From a virus: a stretch of 64,000 nt of DNA. The stretch is taken from IMG/VR virus record IMGVR_UViG_3300015195_000006, positions 1 through 64,000 of that record; one strand, written 5' to 3'. Each line of letters starts with the position of its first letter. Positions within the stretch are counted from its first letter, which is position 1. Below are positions 1,995 to 32,647 of this stretch, in pieces. Below the pieces are notes generated by a model. It had not been told where the DNA came from, ran no database searches, and worked only from the letters and a program-made list of their open reading frames with translations. The position numbers and the translations under genes are program-made.

Positions 1995-2663
1995 TTATCC
2001 AATTTGGTCTATCACGTCTGAAAGGGTAGGGTCGGAGGTGTCTCCCGACCGCCCTTTTCCTCGCCCAACGATCACGCCCATCTTCTCAAGCATCTCAACG
2101 ATCTGCTCATACTCTTTCCGATTGAGGCGCATCCCGTCTGAAAACTGAAAGTCATTGACCGCGCCGGCCTCTTTCAGCCACTGAGAACGCGCCACCCAGT
2201 TCTTCCGTCCCATTCCAAGCAACTGGTCTTTCCGCTTCATAAACTCCGTGACGTGTGAAACGAAAACCTGACGATGGATGACCGGGCTATCATCCGTGGT
2301 GTTTGCCGGAATTTCCAACACATCCCCAATCCCACCGCTTTTATTCCAATCCTTATTGGTCATAATCTCGATCCACGCCTCTGTTATGGCCGCAAGATGT
2401 TTCAATGGCTTGACACACAAAGCCAGCATCCTCGAAATAAACACAAAGAGAAATGGCAACGCGATAATCGAGAGCGTAATACGCCAATTCCGGTGAAGTG
2501 TTACTTCATCTCCAAATGCGAAAAAGAGCAAGATCGGAAATGAAATAAGCGCCGCAATCGCCGCGATCGAGGCGTGAACGAGTTCACTTTCGAGAACTTG
2601 GTCCCGAAAGGTTTTCCCGTTGTCGGGAACATAACGCGTCACTTCATTTAGATTTTGATTCAC
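1995..2663 (-). CDS. membrane protein (two N-terminal TM helices plus soluble C-terminal domain)
   Basis: Track ORF. Hydrophobic stretches IAAIAALISFPILLFFAF and ITLSIIALPFLFVFISRMLAL. Last gene of the leftward block. Confidence 0.55.
   Translation of the reverse strand: MNQNLNEVTRYVPDNGKTFRDQVLESELVHASIAAIAALISFPILLFFAFGDEVTLHRNWRITLSIIALPFLFVFISRMLALCVKPLKHLAAITEAWIEIMTNKDWNKSGGIGDVLEIPANTTDDSPVIHRQVFVSHVTEFMKRKDQLLGMGRKNWVARSQWLKEAGAVNDFQFSDGMRLNRKEYEQIVEMLEKMGVIVGRGKGRSGDTSDPTLSDVIDQIG
2614..2629. repeat. copy of 16-bp dyad motif TTMCCG-N4-CRGKRA
   Basis: TTCCCG TTGT CGGGAA. Inside CDS 1995..2663, where it encodes VPDNGK on the minus strand. Confidence 0.85.
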
Positions 2664-2755
2664 GAATCATCACCTGAATCAACTTGTAGAGCGCGAACAT
2701 CGTCAAACACGCCGCGATGAAAAAGAAGATCCAAATCAGAATCGCCGGCGGTGGA

Positions 2756-3049
2756 CTATCGAAGAACATTCCCTACAAACTCCTCGGATTCTTCTTTCGT
2801 CTTGAGCGTGACATACTCAACTCCGTTGGCTTCGCACATTGCCTTCATCAGGATTTCAGAAGGCGTGTAAGACCATCTTACCATAGGATTCTTGATTTCA
2901 ATAAAGTAGACTTTGCCTTTGACGAACCAGACAAAGTCACGCCCTTTGCCCGGACCTTCCAGCCAACCTTGCTTGCAATCCCGAATCGGCTGCATCACCT
3001 CATCAGCATTGTTGTCCGGCTTATTGCCCCAATGTTTGCCCGGCATCAT
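2756..3049 (-). CDS. VRR-NUC family nuclease
   Basis: PD-(D/E)xK-type signature GRDFVWFVKGKVYFIEIK, with the size (97 aa) typical of VRR-NUC domains. ATGA overlap with the upstream gene. Confidence 0.7.
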   Translation of the reverse strand: MMPGKHWGNKPDNNADEVMQPIRDCKQGWLEGPGKGRDFVWFVKGKVYFIEIKNPMVRWSYTPSEILMKAMCEANGVEYVTLKTKEESEEFVGNVLR

Positions 3050-3402
3050 TCACCTATCTTCTTCGGCAAAAGCGATTCTGCCAAGTCGAATATCTTTCGA
3101 CGATATTCCTCAGCTTTTCTTTCCCAGTATTGAAAATCCAAAACAGTAGGCGCCTTATGCGCATTCTCCATCGCCTGATCTTGAAGGGCTTTGTATTTCT
3201 TGGCGAGCTCTGAAAGTTCCATCATCGTCCTCCCAATTGGATTTGCAACCAAAGCGCGAACAACCATCCGAACAAAAATCCCAGCACAGTACCGTCCTTC
3301 GCCTTTGTCGCATGACCCAGCATCGCGACTCCAATCGTAACTGTAAATTGGAATCCCATAAACATCAAGAAAGCCGGGTCCAAGAACGATCTCATTTCTC
3401 AC
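3046..3402 (-). CDS. hypothetical protein (118 aa)
   Basis: Track ORF, coupled to both neighbours by short overlaps. Confidence 0.5.
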   Translation of the reverse strand: MRNEIVLGPGFLDVYGIPIYSYDWSRDAGSCDKGEGRYCAGIFVRMVVRALVANPIGRTMMELSELAKKYKALQDQAMENAHKAPTVLDFQYWERKAEEYRRKIFDLAESLLPKKIGE

Positions 3403-3823
3403 CCGCTAGAATTAAATCGGTGCGGTTGAAAAAATCCTTGAACTTTCCCACATATTTTACTGGATCGCGCGCAACGATAGAGATCCGGTGCGAACTAATT
3501 CCTAAAGACGGAATCACAAACACTCCGCGGAAAACATCCACAAGATTATCTGTGTCCAGTGTGTCAAAACAGAAAAGCAGGGTGAGATCACTCAATACAA
3601 CACGAGAGCTTGTTGAACGCTTGCGAATGAATTGATAGCCCTTAGTATCATGGTTGATGCGACCATACCCGGATCCCTTAACCTCAATCTTCAGGCTCCC
3701 AGTCTCAAGGTCATGCGCATGAATATCAATTCCATTGGCGGAATGACACGCCACTCCAAGTTCCAGGACGTAGTCCAATGCAAACTCTTCAACGGCTTTG
3801 CCGCGCTCGAAATTTGTTTTCAT
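3392..3823 (-). CDS. PD-(D/E)xK nuclease-fold protein (restriction-endonuclease-like)
   Basis: Start taken at the internal ATG 3823, which forms an ATGA overlap with the stop of 3820..4254. Motif IDIHAHD...LKIEVKG fits D...ExK. Confidence 0.45.
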   Translation of the reverse strand: MKTNFERGKAVEEFALDYVLELGVACHSANGIDIHAHDLETGSLKIEVKGSGYGRINHDTKGYQFIRKRSTSSRVVLSDLTLLFCFDTLDTDNLVDVFRGVFVIPSLGISSHRISIVARDPVKYVGKFKDFFNRTDLILAGEK

Positions 3824-4254
3824 TTCCTCATCCTCTTTCGTCGCGCTCGATTCTGACAATGCCTCGAATGAAACCGCCGACTGCGTAATTCCGTGATTCG
3901 ATGCTTCCCACAGTAACACGCCAAGTCATATCCTTGGATTTCTGTCCCTGGCACCAACGGAGTTTTGCTGAAGAACACGGCTCGATAACTGAACCCATTC
4001 AGTAAACCAATGATCTTCCACTTCATCTTTTGGGGAATGGGCTTGGACCCGGTTTCATATTGGCGCACCGTGCTTTCCGACGCCACCCCGAGCATCAGCA
4101 TCACGCGATAGACCGAAAAACGGTTTCCAACCCGCCACACTCGCAAATCCTCTCCCGATACGTCTGAAGCCATTGAGAGCGGTTTTGTAGATACGAGGGT
4201 CAGAACGCACGGTGAGCGCCGATCTCGCTTCTTTCGGCGCGATTTAGAAATCAT
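3820..4254 (-). CDS. helix-turn-helix DNA-binding protein with basic C-terminus
   Basis: Segment FSVYRVMLMLGVASESTVRQYETGSKPIP looks like an XRE-type HTH. Start is uncertain (4254, 4299 or 4173). Confidence 0.45.
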   Translation of the reverse strand: MISKSRRKKRDRRSPCVLTLVSTKPLSMASDVSGEDLRVWRVGNRFSVYRVMLMLGVASESTVRQYETGSKPIPQKMKWKIIGLLNGFSYRAVFFSKTPLVPGTEIQGYDLACYCGKHRITELRSRRFHSRHCQNRARRKRMRK

Positions 4255-4732
4255 AGCCCTTGCTCTTTCTCTCACCTTGAATGTAGATTTGCGCTTCATC
4301 TAACTCCTGGAAAATCTTGTCGCTCTTGATTCCATTACAAACTTGGCAGGCGGCAACGAAATTGCGTGAATAATTATTCCGTGAGAACGAGTATGGCAAT
4401 CTGTGATCCCAATTGATCGTGATGGTGAAACTCTTTCCGTTGCGTTTCCGTCTTTCACCAAATCGCATTTCGCAATACAAGCACCGATAGTCCTGTTCTT
4501 TGAGAATCCTCTTTTGATCTTTCGGTGATGGTCGTCTCCGACCTACCGTTGGTTCGCTTTCGCGTTTGAATCCGCTGGGCTTTGAATTAACGTCAATCCC
4601 GCAACAAGCCAGTCTTCCGTCTATGACGAATGCCATTGACTTGCAGTCTGGGCACCGTGCCTTTTCCATCGCCACATTCCCGAACAAAGCCGTATAGTGT
4701 TTCATAACAAATCGCCCCCGATAGAGTGTCAT
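4244..4732 (-). CDS. HNH endonuclease
   Basis: YRCLYCEMRF...INWDHRLPYS...ACQVCNGIKSDK is an HNH/zinc motif. N-terminal CxxC...CC zinc ribbon. Confidence 0.8.
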   Translation of the reverse strand: MTLYRGRFVMKHYTALFGNVAMEKARCPDCKSMAFVIDGRLACCGIDVNSKPSGFKRESEPTVGRRRPSPKDQKRILKEQDYRCLYCEMRFGERRKRNGKSFTITINWDHRLPYSFSRNNYSRNFVAACQVCNGIKSDKIFQELDEAQIYIQGERKSKGYDF

Positions 4733-4734
4733 CT

Positions 4735-4821
4735 TGCTTAGAGAATGACGGGACGTTTGTCCACTATCGGGGGCGATGCCGAACTCGCCAAATAAAGCGT
4801 CCCGATTTCATTCTCTAAGCA
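4735..4821 (-). promoter_or_regulatory. long leader hairpin abutting the HNH start codon
   Basis: TGCTTAGAGAATGA+CGGGACG (4735-4755) pairs with CGTCCCG+TCATTCTCTAAGCA (4798-4821). Its loop holds CTATCGGGGGCGAT (4764-4777), a perfect complement of 4711-4724 inside the first codons of the CDS. Confidence 0.5.
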
Positions 4822-4826
4822 TTTGT

Positions 4827-4855
4827 ATTATACGGGATGCGACTTGCTTTGTCAA
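4827..4855 (-). promoter_or_regulatory. sigma70-type promoter for the HNH gene 4244..4732
   Basis: Minus strand reads TTGACA (4855-4850), 17 nt, TATAAT (4832-4827), a perfect consensus. Confidence 0.55.
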
Positions 4856-4908
4856 TCACTGTGAGCCAACCAGAGCGGCGATACAATTTCGGCAAAGCGG
4901 CAAAAAGG

Positions 4909-4937
4909 TTGAAAACACTATGGTTTTTGAAAACACT
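4909..4937. repeat. 11-bp direct repeat TTGAAAACACT x2
   Basis: Copies at 4909-4919 and 4927-4937, plus a partial third (TTGAAAA at 4952), in a 374-bp non-coding spacer. Confidence 0.7.
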
Positions 4938-5106
4938 GTATGGCAATGCCTTTGAAAAAGTTTTGACGCCCTATTTTCTTGTGGCGCAATCGGCTACGGC
5001 TCTTCTTGGTATAACGTAGCATTTTCCGCTTTGATTTCATCTTGGATTTTCAATGGGTTTCTGGTATATGGCTCAAAATCAGTGAAATTGAGCCATACTC
5101 CGAACC

Positions 5107-5583
5107 TTAAGAAATATCGCGTGATTTCTTACCATCTTCGAGCAAGAATTGCTGAGACTCCAATTTCTCGAAAAGAGTCTTGCCGGTTTTTGGATTCCAC
5201 ATGTAAGACAGGAAAACTTGTTCGGGAGTAACTTGTTGGAGTTTCAGCCGCGTGATGTCGGCGGTCAACGAATCAAGAAGAATTCTCCAAGCCACTCGGT
5301 TTGCCTGTTCACGCACTCGCTTCTCGGTGCCACGCTGTGGTTTCTTAACTTCATCAAAAAGAACGGTGAACACCTTATCCACGTCGCAGGGCATTTTGAA
5401 AAACATTTCTCCATGTCCTGTGATGAGCGAAAAAACAAAGGCTGTAGTCTCACCGCCTCCGTTAAATTCCTTGTGAACCGACTTCACACCGGCTTTGGAA
5501 AGCAACCGTTCGATGTCAAGAATGCTTTTCTCGGCGGCAACCTCAGTCGTATAATTCATGATCTTAAACCTTTGAGCAGACAT
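5107..5583 (-). CDS. hypothetical protein (158 aa)
   Basis: Track ORF with AAGGA Shine-Dalgarno upstream of the ATG at 5583. Confidence 0.6.
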   Translation of the reverse strand: MSAQRFKIMNYTTEVAAEKSILDIERLLSKAGVKSVHKEFNGGGETTAFVFSLITGHGEMFFKMPCDVDKVFTVLFDEVKKPQRGTEKRVREQANRVAWRILLDSLTADITRLKLQQVTPEQVFLSYMWNPKTGKTLFEKLESQQFLLEDGKKSRDIS

Positions 5584-21858: not shown

Positions 21859-21914
21859 CAGTTTACGGCTTTTTGCGCGATGCCCTGCCCTCTCTCATAG
21901 TCCGTCATATCGCG

Positions 21915-23168
21915 ATGGTAAAAGAGCTTGTAGTTGCAATCCCAGAGCCGCATCCTAGCCAATTAGAATTTATACGGTCAAGTGTTAAGCGCAAAATAAT
22001 CCGCGCGGGACGCCGTTCCGGGAAAACAGTTGGCGTTGCGATCCTCGCTCTTGAACAATTCCTAAAGGGGCGTCGTGTCTTGTATGCCGCGCCGGTGCAA
22101 GACCAAGTAAATCGTTTTTGGTATGAAGTGACACGCGCTCTGGCTGAGCCAATTGACTCCCAGGTTCTTTACAAAAATGAAACAGAGCACCTCATTGAAG
22201 TGCCGAGAACGCTACAAGCCATCAGAGCAAAAACCGCTTGGAACGCCGACACCCTGAGAGGCGATTACGCTGACCTTCTCATTCTCGACGAATACCAACT
22301 AATGAATGAAGACACATGGGAAGTTGTTGGGGCACCCATGCTCTTGGATAACGATGGCGCGGCGGTTTTCGTCTACACACCGCCTTCTTTGCGGAAACTG
22401 GGCATCTCGAAAGCCAAAGACCCACAACACGCCGCCAAGATGTTCAACCGGGCGGCACTCGACAAGACGGGAAGATGGAAAGGGTTTCATTTCACAAGCC
22501 ACGACAATCCGCACATCAGCGAGATTGCGCTAGCCGAGATCACCGACGATATGACCGAGATGGCATATCGTCAAGAGATTATGGCAGAGGACATCGAGGA
22601 CAATCCACTTTCCTTGTTCAAACGAACCGACATTGAGAAGGGACGTGTTCTGCAAGTCCCGCAACTTTCTGAGATTGTCGTCGCTGTGGATCCAGCGGCA
22701 GACGGAGAAGGCGATGCCTGCGGCATTGTAGCCGCTGGACGCACCAGCGAAGGCGGTACCGGCAAAGACCATTACTATGTCTTAGAAGATGCAACGATGA
22801 ACGGATCGCCCGAACAGCAAGCGATTGCCGCAATCACGCTCTACAACAAATATCACGCCAACCGAATCGTCGCCGAAAAGAATCAAGGCGGCAAGTGGAT
22901 CACCGCAGTATTCCGTCAAGTAGACAAAGAAGTCCCAGTCAAACTGGTTTGGGCATCTGAAGGAAAAGAAGCACGCGCCGAGCCAATTGTGGTAATCTAT
23001 GAGCAAGGACGAGCGCATCACGTTGGAATGTGGAACGCGCTCGAAGATGAAATGTGTCTGTGGGCTCATGGATCACCCTCACCCAACAGACTCGACGCTC
23101 TAGTGTGGTCTGCTACTGACTTGATGCTTAAGAAAGGTCAGACCTGGGTGCCAAGGAGTAAAGAATGA
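21915..23168 (+). CDS. terL: terminase large subunit
   Basis: Walker A AGRRSGKTVGVA, Walker B-like LLILDEY, and a C-terminal nuclease-like region. Start taken at ATG 21915 rather than TTG 21873. Confidence 0.9.
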   Translation: MVKELVVAIPEPHPSQLEFIRSSVKRKIIRAGRRSGKTVGVAILALEQFLKGRRVLYAAPVQDQVNRFWYEVTRALAEPIDSQVLYKNETEHLIEVPRTLQAIRAKTAWNADTLRGDYADLLILDEYQLMNEDTWEVVGAPMLLDNDGAAVFVYTPPSLRKLGISKAKDPQHAAKMFNRAALDKTGRWKGFHFTSHDNPHISEIALAEITDDMTEMAYRQEIMAEDIEDNPLSLFKRTDIEKGRVLQVPQLSEIVVAVDPAADGEGDACGIVAAGRTSEGGTGKDHYYVLEDATMNGSPEQQAIAAITLYNKYHANRIVAEKNQGGKWITAVFRQVDKEVPVKLVWASEGKEARAEPIVVIYEQGRAHHVGMWNALEDEMCLWAHGSPSPNRLDALVWSATDLMLKKGQTWVPRSKE

Positions 23169-28348: not shown

Positions 28349-29035
28349 ATGGATAAAAACAAACCTGGGATTTACGCGATTCGATGCACCGCCGACGGTA
28401 AGAACTCTACGTACATAGGGCAGGCAGGCAACACAATCAAGGGAAGGTGGGGGAAACACAAAGCCGAGTTGAGAGGCAACCGTCACGGTAACGCGCATCT
28501 ACAAAACGCATGGAACAAATACGGAGAACGCGCCTTTGAATTCATAATACTAGAAAACTCCGAGGTTCGATATTTGACTGAACGAGAACAGTACTGGCTT
28601 GATCGAACCAAAGAAACAACCCCAATCTACAACATCTCACACAAGGTTAGATCGTCGTGCATTGGTACTACCTTTTCAGATGAACACAGACAAAGACTAT
28701 CCAGTAGCTTGATGGGGCATTCTGTTTCTGAGGCAACTCGTCAAGCCGTTTCAAAAAGATGGGAAACACGAGAAAGTGATTCCTGGATAACTCGCTGGCT
28801 AAAGGGTTCTGGGTTTCGCGGAAAGAAATTTACAAAAGAACATTCAGATCAGATTAGTTTAAGTGAGGCACGCCCGTATCCTTCATTTATCAATAAATCC
28901 ACTGACGAGATAATTCCAAGCGGCACTGGACTAAATCGGCTTTGTAAGGCGAGGGGATTGAGTATCTCTAAAATGTCAGAGGTAAAGAACGGAAAGCGTG
29001 CACACCACAAGGGATGGAGATTGTTCGGTGGTTAA
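28349..29035 (+). CDS. GIY-YIG homing endonuclease (copy 1)
   Basis: GIYAIRC...YIGQAGNTIKGRWGKHKAELR...NAWNKYGERAFEFIILE, followed by repeated helical NUMOD-like modules (SDEHRQRLSSSLMG...). Confidence 0.85.
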   Translation: MDKNKPGIYAIRCTADGKNSTYIGQAGNTIKGRWGKHKAELRGNRHGNAHLQNAWNKYGERAFEFIILENSEVRYLTEREQYWLDRTKETTPIYNISHKVRSSCIGTTFSDEHRQRLSSSLMGHSVSEATRQAVSKRWETRESDSWITRWLKGSGFRGKKFTKEHSDQISLSEARPYPSFINKSTDEIIPSGTGLNRLCKARGLSISKMSEVKNGKRAHHKGWRLFGG

Positions 29036-29882
29036 GATTTGCTTTCAAATGGTTGTTTGGCAAAGTGATTATTTCCTTGAGCCGTGCCTGAAAAGCATAT
29101 CTCCTTATGGTCAGATTGTTGTAACAGAGGGTCCGGTATCGTTCTGGACTAAGCGCGGAATGGGAACCTCTACTGACAAGACCAATGGAATTCTACGCAA
29201 GTTAGTTGGCAATAAAAGTGTGATTCATGGGGTTTGGTCTGAGAAAGACGAAATGATGAGAGCGGCAGAGCATTTGATTCCTGCTGATACTGATTTTGTT
29301 TGGATGGTCGATTCGGATGAAATCTATAAGGCAGAGATGGTGGAGAGAGTAATCGCCGCATTGGATACCGGGATGTATGACAGCATCGAATTCACCCCGT
29401 TCAGCTTCTTTGGCGGTTTCTCCAGATATATGACTGGATTCGAGGAGCATCCGCCCTTTGGTTGGCATAGAATCCAAAGATGGTATCCTGGGGCTACCTG
29501 GGAAACACATCGCCCGCCGACTGTGGTCGCACCGGACGGAAAGCCATGGAGAGAGCATCGGCACGTTGGCGCAATCCAATCAGAATCTTTGTTTGGTAGA
29601 TATTTCCATTATTCATACGTCTTCCCGTCCCAAATCAAAGCCAAGACCGAATATTACGCCAACAAGCGAACCATCCCGGACTACTTCAATCAGGTCTATC
29701 GTCCGTGGGTCTTGGGCGAGCGAAAAACGATCGAGGATCAATTCGAGGGCGTTCACGATTGGCTACCGGAAATCCGCGGTGCTTGTCGGACTCGAAAATT
29801 CATCGGCAGCCATCCAGAGGAAATCCAGCGGGTTCTGCCGCAACTCAGAGAACGGTTCGCCAAAGAGATTGCTGAACTATGA
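29028..29882 (+). CDS. putative glycosyltransferase (GT-A-like, DxD motif)
   Basis: FVWMVDSDEIY is a DxD motif within a ~280-aa protein sitting inside the glycan gene cluster. Start at GTG 29028 or ATG 29049. Confidence 0.45.
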   Translation: MVKICFQMVVWQSDYFLEPCLKSISPYGQIVVTEGPVSFWTKRGMGTSTDKTNGILRKLVGNKSVIHGVWSEKDEMMRAAEHLIPADTDFVWMVDSDEIYKAEMVERVIAALDTGMYDSIEFTPFSFFGGFSRYMTGFEEHPPFGWHRIQRWYPGATWETHRPPTVVAPDGKPWREHRHVGAIQSESLFGRYFHYSYVFPSQIKAKTEYYANKRTIPDYFNQVYRPWVLGERKTIEDQFEGVHDWLPEIRGACRTRKFIGSHPEEIQRVLPQLRERFAKEIAEL

Positions 29883-29937
29883 AGACCGCGCTCGTCACAA
29901 TGGCATTCACCAAGGATCGGCAAAAGTGGGCAGAACT

Positions 29938-31959
29938 ATGACCTATCCCGACTATATTGACCGCATAATTTGCGGCAATACGCTCGACTCATTGCGAACG
30001 CTGCCCGATGAATCCGTCCATTGCATCGTCACGAGTCCGCCGTACTGGGGCTTGCGCGATTATGGCACGCCGCCACAAATTTGGCGCAACGGCAAAGAGC
30101 CGTGCGAGAATCACGAGTGGGTTGAACGTGCGGAACGAACCGACGAAACGGGATACCAGCGCAATCGCAAGGGGCTGAATCACGCGGCATTGGCGAGTGA
30201 TGGAAACGAACGCACAGCAGAAGCGCGGGTCAATAACATCGTCAAAAAGTCTGACACCTGTCTCGTCTGCGGATCGTGGCGCGGTCACTTGGGACTGGAG
30301 CCGACGCCAGAACTCTACGTTGAGCATCTAGTTGAGATATTCAGAGAGGCGCGGCGTGTGTTGCGGGATGATGGGACGCTGTGGCTGAACCTGGGAGATA
30401 GTTATTGGGGCGGGAAAGGGCAAAGCGCGCAGGCGTGGTCAACCGAAAACACCGACCGCGATACGCTAGAGAAACCGCAACATCAAATAACTGGCAAAGG
30501 CGAGACGCGCCCGCAAGATGGCAAGCATTCAATCTTGAAACCCAAAGACCTCGTCGGCATCCCTTGGCGCGTGGCGTTCGCATTGCAAGCGGACGGCTGG
30601 TATCTGCGAAGCGACATTATTTGGCACAAGCCGAACCCGATGCCAGAGAGCGTGCGCGATAGACCGACGAAGGCGCACGAATACATTTTCCTGATGAGCA
30701 AGTCGCAGAAGTATTACTACGACTATCAAGCGATTCTCGAACCCGCAAATTACGACGGGCGCAAGAAAACGTTTATGCCTGGATCGCCAAAATATCAGAA
30801 CGGCTTTGCGCCAACAAACGGGTCAGAACAAACACTGCGGGCAAAAGGACATGAACGCTGGTCGAATAAAATCGTGGGACGCACTGAAAAGAAAATGGAA
30901 GGCACGGGTTACGGAGGAGATGGAACTGGGTTGCACGGACATAGCGGTTATTATGACGGCGACGGCAAATTGAGAATGAACGTGGATGCAAACGGCATTC
31001 CCGCGCGCAACAAACGAAGCGTCTGGACGGTCACAACGAAGCCGTTTAGCGGCGCGAAACTGATGGCTGATTATGTTGGCGACGATGGCAAGCCCTACAC
31101 AGCGTCAAAAGATTGTCCTCTGCATGGGCATCTTGCGCGTCCTGAAACGTCTGATACTCTTTCAGGTGGTGAACGACAAGTGGAGAACGAGAGCCGCATT
31201 TCTGACAAGCGTGATGATCGCGGTCAAGAATCTTTTTCCGAATCGAGAGCCAAGACTTTCCATAGCCACGCGGAAGGGTTAGGCGAAAATGCTCTCGCGC
31301 AAATTCCTGAAAGCAGGGGCGACCACAAAACTTCAACTGACCAGAGCGAACATACTTTGCCCGTTCAAAGTCTTTCCCGCACCACGCGCAATTTAGAATC
31401 TCATGGCGATGTGGGCGATAAAAAGGATTCAAGCGACCCAGCACATTCTTTGATTGCCAAGTCCCATAGCAAGCGAAAGAGCAGAACTGACCGCGCTCTC
31501 CTGACATCGCAACGTGATAGCGTTTCCGTACAAACTCTTTTTGGCACACCGAACAACGAATCGTCTGACGTGCGTACTGATTCGGATGTCCGCATTGGCG
31601 AGAGCAATAACGCGGCGGATTACGTTTTAAGTGCGACGGAGCAGAGTCCTTCGGCTGAAATGATTTACCGCACCTTTCACAACGATATTCCATCTGACAC
31701 CTCTACGTCTATTATATGCAAATGCGCGAAAGTGTCAATAGACCATTTCGCCACCTTCCCGCCTGACCTGATTGAGCCATGTATCTTGGCGGGCTGCCCG
31801 AAAGATGGCGTGGTACTTGATCCGTTCTTTGGAAGCGGCACAACGGGCGCGGTAGCGAAGAAACACGGGCGGCATTATCTCGGGCTAGAATTGAAGCCAG
31901 AATATATTGAGATGGCAGAGCGCAGAATCGCAGACGTGCAACCGCAATTGACTTTATGA
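29938..31959 (+). CDS. beta-class N4/N6 DNA methyltransferase carrying a 229-codon in-frame insertion
   Basis: Motif IV IVTSPPYWGLRDYG lies near the N-terminus. RSVWTVTTKPFSGA is separated by 229 codons from HFATFPPDL...VLDPFFGSGTTGAVA (motif I). Start at ATG 29938; the upstream part of the 833-aa track ORF overlaps the preceding gene. Confidence 0.8.
   Translation: MTYPDYIDRIICGNTLDSLRTLPDESVHCIVTSPPYWGLRDYGTPPQIWRNGKEPCENHEWVERAERTDETGYQRNRKGLNHAALASDGNERTAEARVNNIVKKSDTCLVCGSWRGHLGLEPTPELYVEHLVEIFREARRVLRDDGTLWLNLGDSYWGGKGQSAQAWSTENTDRDTLEKPQHQITGKGETRPQDGKHSILKPKDLVGIPWRVAFALQADGWYLRSDIIWHKPNPMPESVRDRPTKAHEYIFLMSKSQKYYYDYQAILEPANYDGRKKTFMPGSPKYQNGFAPTNGSEQTLRAKGHERWSNKIVGRTEKKMEGTGYGGDGTGLHGHSGYYDGDGKLRMNVDANGIPARNKRSVWTVTTKPFSGAKLMADYVGDDGKPYTASKDCPLHGHLARPETSDTLSGGERQVENESRISDKRDDRGQESFSESRAKTFHSHAEGLGENALAQIPESRGDHKTSTDQSEHTLPVQSLSRTTRNLESHGDVGDKKDSSDPAHSLIAKSHSKRKSRTDRALLTSQRDSVSVQTLFGTPNNESSDVRTDSDVRIGESNNAADYVLSATEQSPSAEMIYRTFHNDIPSDTSTSIICKCAKVSIDHFATFPPDLIEPCILAGCPKDGVVLDPFFGSGTTGAVAKKHGRHYLGLELKPEYIEMAERRIADVQPQLTL
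31046..31693 (-). CDS. HNH endonuclease encoded antisense inside the methylase insertion
   Basis: ACQKCGSRSPLVVHHL...NLLTLCRACHRRQH, plus several CxxC zinc-ribbon units. GAGGTG Shine-Dalgarno at 31698-31703. Confidence 0.8.
   Translation of the reverse strand: MEYRCERCGKSFQPKDSAPSHLKRNPPRYCSRQCGHPNQYARQTIRCSVCQKEFVRKRYHVAMSGERGQFCSFACYGTWQSKNVLGRLNPFYRPHRHEILNCAWCGKDFERAKYVRSGQLKFCGRPCFQEFAREHFRLTLPRGYGKSWLSIRKKILDRDHHACQKCGSRSPLVVHHLKEYQTFQDAQDAHAEDNLLTLCRACHRRQHNQPSVSRR
31711..31738 (-). promoter_or_regulatory. sigma70 consensus promoter for the antisense HNH gene
   Basis: Minus strand reads TTGACA (31738-31733), 16 nt, TATAAT (31716-31711). Confidence 0.55.
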
Positions 31960-31975
31960 ATCACCCGCATAGAAT
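31948..31975 (+). promoter_or_regulatory. promoter placed for a leaderless GIY-YIG transcript
   Basis: TTGACT (31948-31953), 16 nt, TAGAAT (31970-31975), 6 nt, ATG 31982. Overlaps the methylase stop codon. Confidence 0.5.
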
Positions 31976-31981
31976 TCGAGT

Positions 31982-32647
31982 ATGCCAAAAAGTAATTTGC
32001 CTGGAATCTATGCGATTGTTAATCTTGCAAACGGGAAGATGACAACCTATGTTGGCTCTACGGGCAACGCAATCGGATTGAGATGGACAGAGCATAGAAC
32101 GAAATTGCGAAGCAATAAGCATTTCAATCGCTATCTTCAAAGCTCTTGGAACAAACACGGCGAAAGCGCGTTTAGATTCGAGGCATTGGAGAACGTGCTT
32201 GAATCGGGTTGGCTGCCAGAGCGAGAACAATTCTGGCTAGATGAGATTAGATCACATAGACCAGTTTACAATACTGGAAAGTGTGCGGCGAATCCGTTAT
32301 TAGATAAACCGATGTCTGATGCCACGAAAAAGAAATTGTCAGAAGCGCGCCTGTCTTTTTCGGATGACGTAAAGAAACGGTTAGCCGCGATGGTTTCAAA
32401 GGTGCATAAGGGCAAGGAAATCTCGAACGCGCAAAGAGAATTTATGCACTTTAGGATGCTAGGAAATAATAATCATCCGCCCGCCAAGCCGTATCCCGCA
32501 TTTGTAAATCAAGTAACGGGTAAAGTCATACCTAGCGGCATGGGTCTTAGAACGATGTGTCGGCAACAGAATCTAAACCAAGCGGCAATGTGGCGCGTGA
32601 TGAAGGGAATCTGCAAACAACACCTTGGGTGGGAGGTTCTAAAGTGA
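31982..32647 (+). CDS. GIY-YIG homing endonuclease (copy 2, paralog of copy 1)
   Basis: GIYAIVNLANGKMTTYVGSTGNAIGLRWTEHRTKLR...SSWNKHGESAFRFEALE. C-terminal PYPAFVNQVTGKVIPSGMGL parallels copy 1. Confidence 0.85.
   Translation: MPKSNLPGIYAIVNLANGKMTTYVGSTGNAIGLRWTEHRTKLRSNKHFNRYLQSSWNKHGESAFRFEALENVLESGWLPEREQFWLDEIRSHRPVYNTGKCAANPLLDKPMSDATKKKLSEARLSFSDDVKKRLAAMVSKVHKGKEISNAQREFMHFRMLGNNNHPPAKPYPAFVNQVTGKVIPSGMGLRTMCRQQNLNQAAMWRVMKGICKQHLGWEVLK

Follow-up and report, generated by a model that had tools for sequence, protein, structure and literature searches.

An HNH endonuclease gene lying antisense within a phage DNA methylase gene whose reading frame is kept open

Introduction

How can a complete endonuclease gene lie inside a conserved DNA methylase gene, on the opposite strand, while the methylase frame remains readable from end to end? 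This question is raised by a viral DNA stretch of 64,000 nucleotides (nt) (IMG/VR record IMGVR_UViG_3300015195_000006, positions 1 to 64,000; the whole stretch is called the window), in which the open reading frame (ORF) of a beta-class N4/N6 DNA methylase contains 229 additional in-frame codons, the opposite strand of which encodes an HNH endonuclease (Table 1). A reading made from the letters of the window alone (the sequence-only reading) had proposed that a mobile endonuclease gene had invaded the methylase gene in antisense orientation while keeping the host frame open, and the comparison with about 100 relatives supports the core of this proposal. The locus probably consists of a homing-type HNH gene that is located antisense within a phage methylase gene and shares its sequence with it by dual coding, without RNA or protein splicing.

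The same reading had found the arrangement unfamiliar from inteins, introns and free-standing homing endonucleases. It is indeed none of these, but a same-strand counterpart has been published, namely the ShiLan domain, a hidden out-of-frame HNH endonuclease in mycobacteriophage DNA methylases (Arsenault, Gosselin & Gogarten 2025, Genes, PMC11855218; Gosselin et al. 2023, PMC9957025).

Results

Anatomy of the locus

The methylase ORF matches the Pfam family N6_N4_Mtase (PF01555) at 7.9e-49 in two separated stretches, and it has the motif IV TSPPYWGL upstream and the S-adenosylmethionine (AdoMet) motif DPFFGSGTT downstream, as is characteristic of beta-class methylases. In an alignment with 91 homologues, the residues H603, F604, A605, P608, D628, F630 and G632 in the C-terminal part are invariant. 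Insert-free homologues (Salicola phage CGphi29 and the proteins P0003 and P0004) are uninterrupted at ...RPYKGA-HFATFPPDL..., and a P0003-like insert-free allele reads ...KPYKEAHFATFP... at this site. Because these homologues run straight through, the insertion was placed between ...KPFSGA and HFATFP, so that alignment with homologues defines the same insertion as had been read from the sequence alone. Its termini are ...GA/KLMADY, with Lys as the first residue, and ...KVSID/HFATFP, followed by His (the slash marks the junction). The predicted full-length product has a mass of about 74 kDa.

On the minus strand, the HNH ORF covers 648 of the 687 nt of the insert and leaves 39 nt of non-ORF sequence. 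It matches the Pfam families HNH (8e-8) and zf-FCS (2.9e-5), and the profile of its family matches PDB 5h0m, an HNH endonuclease with a solved structure (1.7e-5). The catalytic His/Asn/His residues and the CxxC zinc ligands of the beta-beta-alpha-metal endonucleases (PF01844) are present in the window gene, and the catalytic or zinc-binding residues C163, C166, H175, H176, N194, C199, C202, H203 and H207 are invariant across six relatives. The stop codon and the last three codons of the HNH gene overlap the F-S-G-A codons of the methylase. The coordinates of both genes, the promoter, the ribosome-binding site, the overlap and the stop-free insertion of 229 codons all hold as they had first been read.

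Selection on the host frame

In the host frame of the window insert no stop codon was observed, while about 5-6 would be expected. The frame remained open in 3 of 10,000 synonymous-codon permutations of the HNH gene (P=3e-4), in 5 of 10,000 resamplings from the codon usage of the genome (5e-4), and in 8 of 10,000 codon-order shuffles. Openness by chance, for which the sequence-only reading had recommended codon shuffles as a check, is thus refuted. The rule that it had given is right for this phase: an HNH codon of the form NTT, NCT or NTC before a codon starting with A produces a host stop. The window gene has 30 junctions at which a synonymous choice could create such a stop, and safe codons are used at all 30.

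Relatives were ascertained by an HNH alignment search of metagenome and viral contigs and not via methylase ORF calls, which removes the bias toward seeing only open frames. The search yielded 95 non-identical HNH genes with identities of 31-63%, and the whole set of about 100 diverged loci derives from soil, sediment, freshwater and marine viromes and from metagenome-assembled genomes (MAGs) of several phyla. In 90 of the 95 cases the gene lies antisense within a long methylase ORF, at the same site (...VW(T)..T.PFSG / insert / ...HFATFP), in the same phase, and with zero host-frame stops. Bacterial MAGs, from Acidobacteriota, Patescibacteria, Solirubrobacterales and Gammaproteobacteria, contributed seven copies, all with this arrangement. 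Over the 17,735 codons of the 95 genes, the four other frames contain 519, 709, 405 and 1106 stops, compared with 30 in the host phase, for which about 3.1 stops per locus would be expected from synonymous permutation. Moreover, a host stop would be unavoidable if Phe preceded Ile, Met, Thr, Asn or Lys; this was the case for none of 627 Phe residues, compared with an expectation of about 98, and the host-frame constraint therefore reaches the amino acid sequence of the endonuclease. There is thus selection against host-frame stops.

All 30 host-phase stops are confined to five of the 95 loci, and the stop-free property is lost where the host methylase is not intact. In the AT-rich loci L011 and L012 (HNH 63% identical to that of the window; 7 host-phase stops) the methylase is a decayed remnant ('SIDHCATIPQLI*'), as it apparently also is in the AT-rich locus L141 ('GHLSTIP'; HNH 69% identical; 8 stops). 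In L056 and L057 (11 stops) the methylase is split into two ORFs around the antisense HNH gene, while L070 is a frameshifted copy (3 stops) and L053 is the fifth locus with stops (2 stops).

Some further properties of these loci can be added. L011, L012, L141 and L142 have a GC content of 36-37% and contain the closest HNH relatives (63-69% identity), which stand free beside a decayed methylase remnant and contain 7-8 stops in what was once the host phase; the neighbours of the L141 gene are a LexA-like gene and another HNH gene. In L056/L057 the HNH protein is longer (about 333 amino acids; 3001-3993, plus strand) and lies antisense between the separate methylase ORFs, and part of the junction peptide is present twice (...NVWTIPEP... 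and ...NVLTINPKPTKEAHFATYP...).

Expression signals of the antisense gene

The consensus sigma-70-type promoter upstream of the window gene is not an isolated case. Promoter-like sites with at least 9 of 12 matches and at most 90 nt upstream of the HNH start were found at 41 of 93 loci, compared with 2 of 93 intragenic control stretches, and antisense promoters are thus conserved in the family. The window gene has a leader of 17 nt with the motif GAGGTG, and other relatives likewise have a spacer with a Shine-Dalgarno motif. In many relatives (L013, L015, L017, L020-L023, L026, L028, L032-L037 and others) a -10-like hexamer is separated by 6-7 nt from the predicted HNH start, which suggests leaderless HNH mRNAs in these cases, the start-codon calls in relatives being approximate.

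Conserved ends and a predicted disordered middle of the host-frame peptide

The wobble base of the HNH codons pairs with position 2 of the host codons, and therefore a synonymous change in the HNH gene always alters the host residue. Near the N-terminal end of the insert, a motif C-P-x-H is conserved in the host frame in 79 of 82 loci, opposite the HNH segment ...H-x-L-D-N..., just ahead of the catalytic Asn. For the HNH His that faces the host His, CAT is used in 81 cases and CAC in one, compared with a background of 525 and 377, and the HNH codon before Asn, which lies opposite the host Cys, has a wobble C in 87 of 87 loci (GAC 67, GAT 0; background GAT 339, GAC 259). By the genetic code, the fixed silent sites of the HNH gene spell His and Cys in the predicted product of the opposite strand. 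At the other end, a motif C-x-C is present in 87 of 89 loci, either 7 or 12 residues before HFATFP, and both Cys codons are used (TGT 103, TGC 71). In the window this motif is located 5' of the HNH start codon; in 49 of 86 loci it is located beyond the predicted HNH ORF, and in the other 37 it overlaps the start of that ORF, mostly by 13 nt or less. The C-x-C motif is missing only in L124 and L126, which are not mutual nearest relatives and which both belong to the three loci without C-P-x-H; in the third of these, L083, a Cys replaces the His. These codon patterns indicate protein-level selection on the conserved Cys and His residues in the host frame.

Structure prediction with AlphaFold2, based on an alignment of 92 sequences, gave predicted local distance difference test (pLDDT) values above 90 for the methylase core, 88-95 for residues 374-400 and about 91 for residues 591-600, and about 30 for residues 407-576. 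In a Foldseek comparison with M.BceJIV, CcrM, M.PvuII, M.RsrI and M.MboIIA, both halves of the model aligned with target-normalised template modelling (TM) scores of 0.7-0.8. In the middle of the insert, the identity between relatives is 23% in the host frame and 44% in the HNH frame, the grand average of hydropathicity is -0.77, and the Ser content is 13%. The proposal of the sequence-only reading that the insertion is translated as a tolerated disordered loop is thus borne out for residues 407-576, whereas it does not apply to the two ends of the insert, which have pLDDT values of about 90 and are conserved in the host frame. We infer that C393, H396, C594 and C596 are the putative ligands of a small metal-binding (zinc) clasp that may tether the disordered loop. 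A depletion of A at the third codon position of the HNH gene, by which the loop could have been kept hydrophilic, was considered and rejected, as the frequency is 0.166 compared with 0.170 in the methylase core; the sole shift in wobble composition is from C to T.

Two further variants of the methylase were noticed. The methylase P0078/L233 (190-1452) contains only a mini-insert of about 43 amino acids at the same site (LELCQNCNTVF...RICTCGAWDRWLS/HFATFP), with CxxC...CxC and without an HNH gene on the opposite strand; its C-terminal end resembles that of the L063/L104 subfamily (CTC..W...SHFA). It could be a derivative that arose after loss of the HNH gene, or else an ancestral zinc loop. In addition, an unrelated variable insertion of 60-150 amino acids is found between ...ILAGTS and VLDPF. 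It is a zinc-ribbon segment (CPxCG...W.P.C.C), it occurs in P0002, P0018, P0029, P0050, P0088, P0092, P0097 and many of the surveyed loci, and it is independent of the HNH insert.

Distribution and mobility

Protein searches with the methylase retrieved mostly insert-free enzymes of 370-470 amino acids, together with the insert-bearing proteins P0016, P0020, P0026, P0050, P0051, P0056, P0059, P0067, P0077, P0084, P0095 and P0111. For P0020, P0056, P0059 and P0084 the DNA was inspected, and in all four cases it contains an antisense HNH ORF that is intact and in the same phase. The IMG/VR locus L003 likewise agrees with the window in insertion site and antisense layout, and its HNH protein is 57% identical to that of the window. 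A search with the insert peptide retrieved only eight proteins. Among 80 methylases of an IMG/VR sample that was ascertained via the methylase, one carries the HNH insert and 73 have no insert at all. In a neighbour-joining tree of the methylase cores, the insert-bearing enzymes are scattered among insert-free ones, and the cores closest to that of the window are insert-free (P0003, 72%). The distribution of the insert is thus patchy. The HNH identity is not correlated with the identity of conserved host blocks (r = 0.00, 528 pairs); these blocks were used since the 200 amino acids upstream of the site contain inteins and variable regions and are unsuitable. Accordingly, P0020 and P0095 have cores that are 74% identical and HNH genes of different subfamilies. 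The patchy distribution and the lack of co-divergence of endonuclease and host fit a homing element. In searches for close relatives of the window phage or for an empty allele, blastn against phages gave a coverage of only 13-16%, and an IMG/VR scan with the N-terminal part of the methylase retrieved nothing above 52% identity.

The endonuclease genes are poorly represented in protein collections. A catalogue of 5.8 billion proteins gave seven matches to the window HNH protein, compared with more than 100 loci at the DNA level, because gene callers choose either the long methylase ORF or the HNH gene together with a 'truncated' methylase. In L140 (GCA_020444145.1, JAHLLP010000003.1), for example, NCBI annotates the HNH gene and a C-terminal methylase fragment of 164 amino acids and leaves the N-terminal part uncalled, although no stop interrupts the full methylase frame across the HNH gene.

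A genuine LAGLIDADG intein (CLSGG...THN/C) resides at another position of the methylase family, in the motif DIIW/xKPNPMPES, in L003/L015 (methylase on the minus strand of the locus, 2738-5563), P0026, P0092, P0008, P0046 and P0071. Both the intein and the antisense HNH insert are present in the methylase gene of L003, and likewise in that of P0026.

The 8-bp direct repeat that the sequence-only reading had noticed at the two junctions exists at both positions, but it is not a feature of the element. Over 82 related loci, the longest word shared by the junction windows has the same distribution as in a control window, and a length of 8 nt is reached in 2 of 82 cases in both. A transposon or insertion sequence with target-site duplication was rejected as the origin of the insert, as the second copy of the repeat lies 12 nt inside the junction and the 82 relatives show no excess of junction repeats.

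Genomic surroundings

The window derives from a tailed phage, as it contains a large terminase gene. Two paralogous free-standing GIY-YIG endonuclease genes bracket the methylase region, so that three selfish endonuclease genes are found within 4.3 kb around the methylase. The paralogues have in common an N-terminal segment ...PGIYAI... and a C-terminal segment ...PYP.F.N..T...IPSG.GL..., and the second copy has no Pfam match. Several glycosyltransferase-like genes are located in the neighbourhood of the methylase, and two very large phage proteins are encoded further downstream.

Table 1. Position, strand and characteristics of the features of the window
Feature	Position	Strand	Remarks
Beta-class N4/N6 DNA methylase ORF, 673 amino acids	29938..31959	+	ATG at 29938; reads through the insertion; Pfam PF01555 in two stretches
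Methylase N-terminal part	29938..31056	+	Motif IV (TSPPYWGL), DIIWHKPNPMPES block, variable region, end ...RSVWTVTTKPFSGA; from the alignment of 91 homologues
In-frame insertion, 229 codons, 687 nt	31057..31743	+	Host-frame reading of the antisense HNH cassette
Methylase C-terminal part	31744..31959	+	HFATFP motif and AdoMet-binding DPFFGSGTT
HNH endonuclease gene, 215 amino acids	31046..31693	-	Three CxxC...(F/Y)C..C zinc fingers, then C-terminal HNH domain (about 31067-31207)
Sigma-70-type promoter TTGACA-16-TATAAT of the HNH gene	31738..31711	-	12/12 match; within methylase codons ...SIICKCAKVSI...
Ribosome-binding site GAGGTG	31703..31698	-	4 nt 5' of the HNH ATG; read from the sequence
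N-terminal 'clasp', residues 374-406 (KLMADYVGDDGKPYTASKDCPLHG...)	31057..31155	+	pLDDT 88-95; putative zinc ligands C393 (31114-31116) and H396 (31123-31125)
Hydrophilic Ser-rich loop, predicted disordered, residues 407-576	31156..31665	+	pLDDT about 30
C-terminal 'clasp', residues 591-602 (SIICKCAKVSID)	31708..31743	+	pLDDT about 91; putative ligands C594 (31717-31719) and C596 (31723-31725)
8-bp repeat GCGCGAAA	31052..31059; second copy 31724-31731		Judged coincidental; not conserved in relatives
Large terminase gene	21873-23168
GIY-YIG endonuclease gene, first copy	28349-29035	+
GIY-YIG endonuclease gene, second copy	31982-32647	+
Phage protein, 1293 amino acids	37797-41678	+	ATP-grasp (D-Ala-D-Ala ligase C-terminal) domain and zinc ribbon
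Phage protein, 1363 amino acids	54716-58807	+	GH25 muramidase at the end

Discussion

A homing-type endonuclease gene that shares its DNA with the host gene would operate as follows. The cassette would have entered at the junction of the variable region and the HFATFP motif. From the minus strand, its own sigma-70 promoter and ribosome-binding site would lead to production of the endonuclease, while on the plus strand the ribosome that translates the methylase would pass through the cassette and thereby add 229 residues, namely a structured N-terminal segment of about 33 amino acids with C-P-x-H, a disordered loop of about 170 amino acids, and a structured C-terminal segment of about 12 amino acids with C-x-C. 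The four Cys and His residues would bind a metal ion and keep the ends of the loop close to each other, which would allow both halves of the methylase to fold as they do in insert-free enzymes. In co-infections the endonuclease would cut insert-free alleles at the conserved ...GA/HFATFP... site, and repair would copy the cassette into the broken allele (homing).

It should be noted that several points weigh against this explanation or parts of it. The surveyed loci are phylogenetically related, and counts across loci are thus not counts of independent events. In 37 of 86 loci the C-x-C motif lies in the promoter spacer or overlaps the first predicted HNH codons, and its conservation may reflect a role at the level of the DNA. 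Metal binding is suggested by residue conservation and by pLDDT values; like the activity of the 74-kDa methylase, the specificity of cleavage and ongoing homing, it is something that we infer. The neighbour-joining tree has no support values, and the conserved blocks used to compare host and endonuclease may be saturated. No near-identical pair of a filled and an empty allele was found, the best insert-free core being 72% identical, and therefore recent homing is not demonstrated. Lastly, precise loss of the insert could add to the patchiness.

An alternative view is that the HNH protein is a domesticated partner of the methylase, forming with it a pair similar to a restriction-modification or addiction system, in which the nuclease attacks unmethylated DNA of the host or of competitors, the methylase protects the phage, the nested layout makes the two genes inseparable, and convergent transcription couples their expression. 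The HNH clade is indeed found with this methylase family and at this site in about 115 of 120 loci, the association is old (HNH identities go down to 31%), both genes are intact, and the conserved convergent promoters would permit antisense regulation. However, matched specificities should co-evolve, whereas the two proteins do not co-diverge and closely related methylase cores are combined with different HNH subfamilies; in addition, most members of the methylase family lack any insert, both in the IMG/VR sample and among the protein-search matches, HNH copies persist next to decayed methylase remnants, and an architecture of multiple zinc fingers with an HNH domain, inserted at a conserved motif, is typical of homing endonucleases. 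Thus, a domesticated pair appears unlikely.

Splicing could also restore the methylase, at the level of either RNA or protein. Antisense endonuclease ORFs occur in some group I introns of eukaryotic ribosomal DNA (rDNA). Group I introns with HNH ORFs are frequent in phage genes (PMC3428280), and the insertion could be a self-splicing group I or group II intron with an antisense homing endonuclease ORF. An Rfam scan of both strands of 29500-32500 found no family at E <= 1, and the ORF leaves no more than 39 nt of the insert uncovered. Splicing would make an open host frame unnecessary, yet 90 of 95 diverged copies are stop-free, host-frame Cys and His residues are fixed via synonymous sites of the HNH gene, and copies in a dead host gene no longer have the open frame; an intron is therefore very improbable. 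Excision of the host-frame peptide as an unusual intein or by another post-translational route would be in accord with an in-frame insertion at a conserved motif, which is intein-like, and with the occurrence of true inteins at another site of the same methylase family. But the insert lacks an N-terminal Cys or Ser, a terminal His-Asn, and a Cys, Ser or Thr at position +1, Pfam finds only N6_N4_Mtase in the methylase ORF and no Hint or intein domain, and the middle 170 residues are predicted to be disordered and are conserved to only 23%, so that we give this possibility hardly any weight. Finally, the open frame might be a compositional coincidence in a methylase that is simply disrupted. Of the antisense phases, the host phase is by its nature the one least prone to stops, with about 3-5 stops expected compared with 4-12 observed in other phases. 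Nevertheless, coincidence is refuted by the randomizations of the window gene (P=3-5e-4), by the recurrence of the pattern in about 90 diverged loci and by the absence of the Phe-dependent stops, and the downstream methylase motifs are in phase and conserved; it can practically be dismissed. Dual coding by a homing-type HNH gene and an unspliced methylase gene accounts best for these results.

The closest known system is the ShiLan domain, and a hidden HNH insertion that adds no stop to a methylase frame is already published for the same strand; the antisense arrangement is therefore not without precedent. In both cases an HNH endonuclease with CxxCGKxF...(Y/F)CSxxC zinc fingers is hidden in additional sequence within a phage PF01555 methylase, this sequence introduces no host-frame stop and lacks signatures of introns or inteins, most of the host-frame peptide is predicted with low confidence, the distribution is disjunct without co-divergence of element and host (here judged from a crude neighbour-joining tree and an identity correlation), and the host family also carries inteins. 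There are also differences. The ShiLan HNH is encoded on the same strand in the third frame, whereas that of the window and of about 90 relatives is on the opposite strand; ShiLan has no recognisable ribosome-binding site, and leaderless translation from the host transcript has been proposed for it, whereas the window gene has its own promoter. The window methylase belongs to the PopTart gp60-like subfamily of PF01555 and that of ShiLan is gp63-like, and the insertion sites differ. The window protein has three fingers followed by a C-terminal CxxC-type HNH domain, in contrast to the order finger, I-HmuI-like HNH and finger in ShiLan, and only the ShiLan inserts are flanked by a duplication of 11 amino acids of host sequence. 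The C-P-x-H...C-x-C ends and their synonymous-site signature have not been described for ShiLan, and nothing is said in the ShiLan papers about an antisense, opposite or reverse strand. Literature searches found no paper on an HNH gene on the opposite strand of a methylase gene.

The ShiLan layout could be reproduced in gp64 of phage Mantra, while gp63 of Rando14 was rejected as a case of a hidden HNH gene, as it is a methylase with a C-terminal extension. A same-strand case was observed in Escherichia phage BUCT618 (L001, OM735461.1), in which an out-of-frame HNH gene (2486-3091, plus strand) lies within a PopTart-gp63-type methylase gene (2073-3935, plus strand). The encoded protein has zinc fingers and an HNH domain and is 29% identical to that of the window, the host frame is open, and the insert is located at a site unlike that of ShiLan and has duplicated SK.IDK host peptides on its flanks. 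Only a 'site-specific DNA-methyltransferase' is annotated in the record, the hidden HNH gene appears to be unreported, and a megablast search of complete E. coli genomes with this methylase gave no match.

Other ways in which endonuclease genes or foreign sequences reside in conserved genes share some of these features. Inteins with homing endonucleases are likewise inserted in frame at a conserved motif, translated as part of the host protein, spread by endonuclease-promoted homing and distributed patchily. In contrast, the window insert lacks splicing motifs, its endonuclease is encoded on the other strand and is not part of the host polypeptide, and the insert is apparently retained in the mature protein. 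Group I introns that contain HNH ORFs, such as those for I-HmuI, I-TevIII and I-PfoP3I, also interrupt conserved phage genes without destroying their function, whereas in the window no ribozyme was detected, there is almost no sequence outside the ORF, and the host frame is selected to be open. The free-standing homing endonuclease gene mobE reportedly splits the nrdA gene of Aeromonas phage Aeh1 into 'genes in pieces'. This too is an endonuclease gene within a conserved gene without intron or intein, and L056/L057 similarly have a split methylase, but the window and about 90 relatives are unsplit and encode one continuous polypeptide. Rickettsia palindromic elements are short non-coding repeats that are inserted in frame and translated as tolerated surface loops; they resemble the window insert as selfish in-frame insertions tolerated by translation, and differ from it in having neither an endonuclease gene nor dual coding.

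The antisense form, the own promoter, the clasp and the prevalence of the arrangement appear to be undescribed. New aspects are the number of diverged loci, about 100, the quantitative support for selection acting on the two strands, and the conserved Cys and His ends. The locus represents a further route by which selfish endonuclease genes reside within host genes, and it extends the route that was reported in 2023-2025 in one orientation. Whether antisense dual coding is a third and widespread route for homing endonuclease genes besides introns and inteins, in which the strand opposite the endonuclease gene has evolved, through overprinting of the HNH catalytic motif and its wobble positions, into a self-tethering module whose Cys3His zinc clasp staples a disordered loop of about 170 amino acids so that the methylase folds and works, seems to us an evenly balanced question. 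The locus also offers a test case for the evolution of overlapping genes and for methods of their detection, as a natural example of a long antisense overlap in which selection on each of the two coding strands can be measured. If dual coding with a clasp is true, the shared stretch of about 650 nt would be among the longest and most widely conserved fully antisense protein-protein overlaps in phages, and endonuclease genes of this kind would for the most part escape both gene callers and protein databases. Should the zinc-clasp loop prove real, methyltransferases would have a natural site that permits large insertions, together with a design for tethering them.

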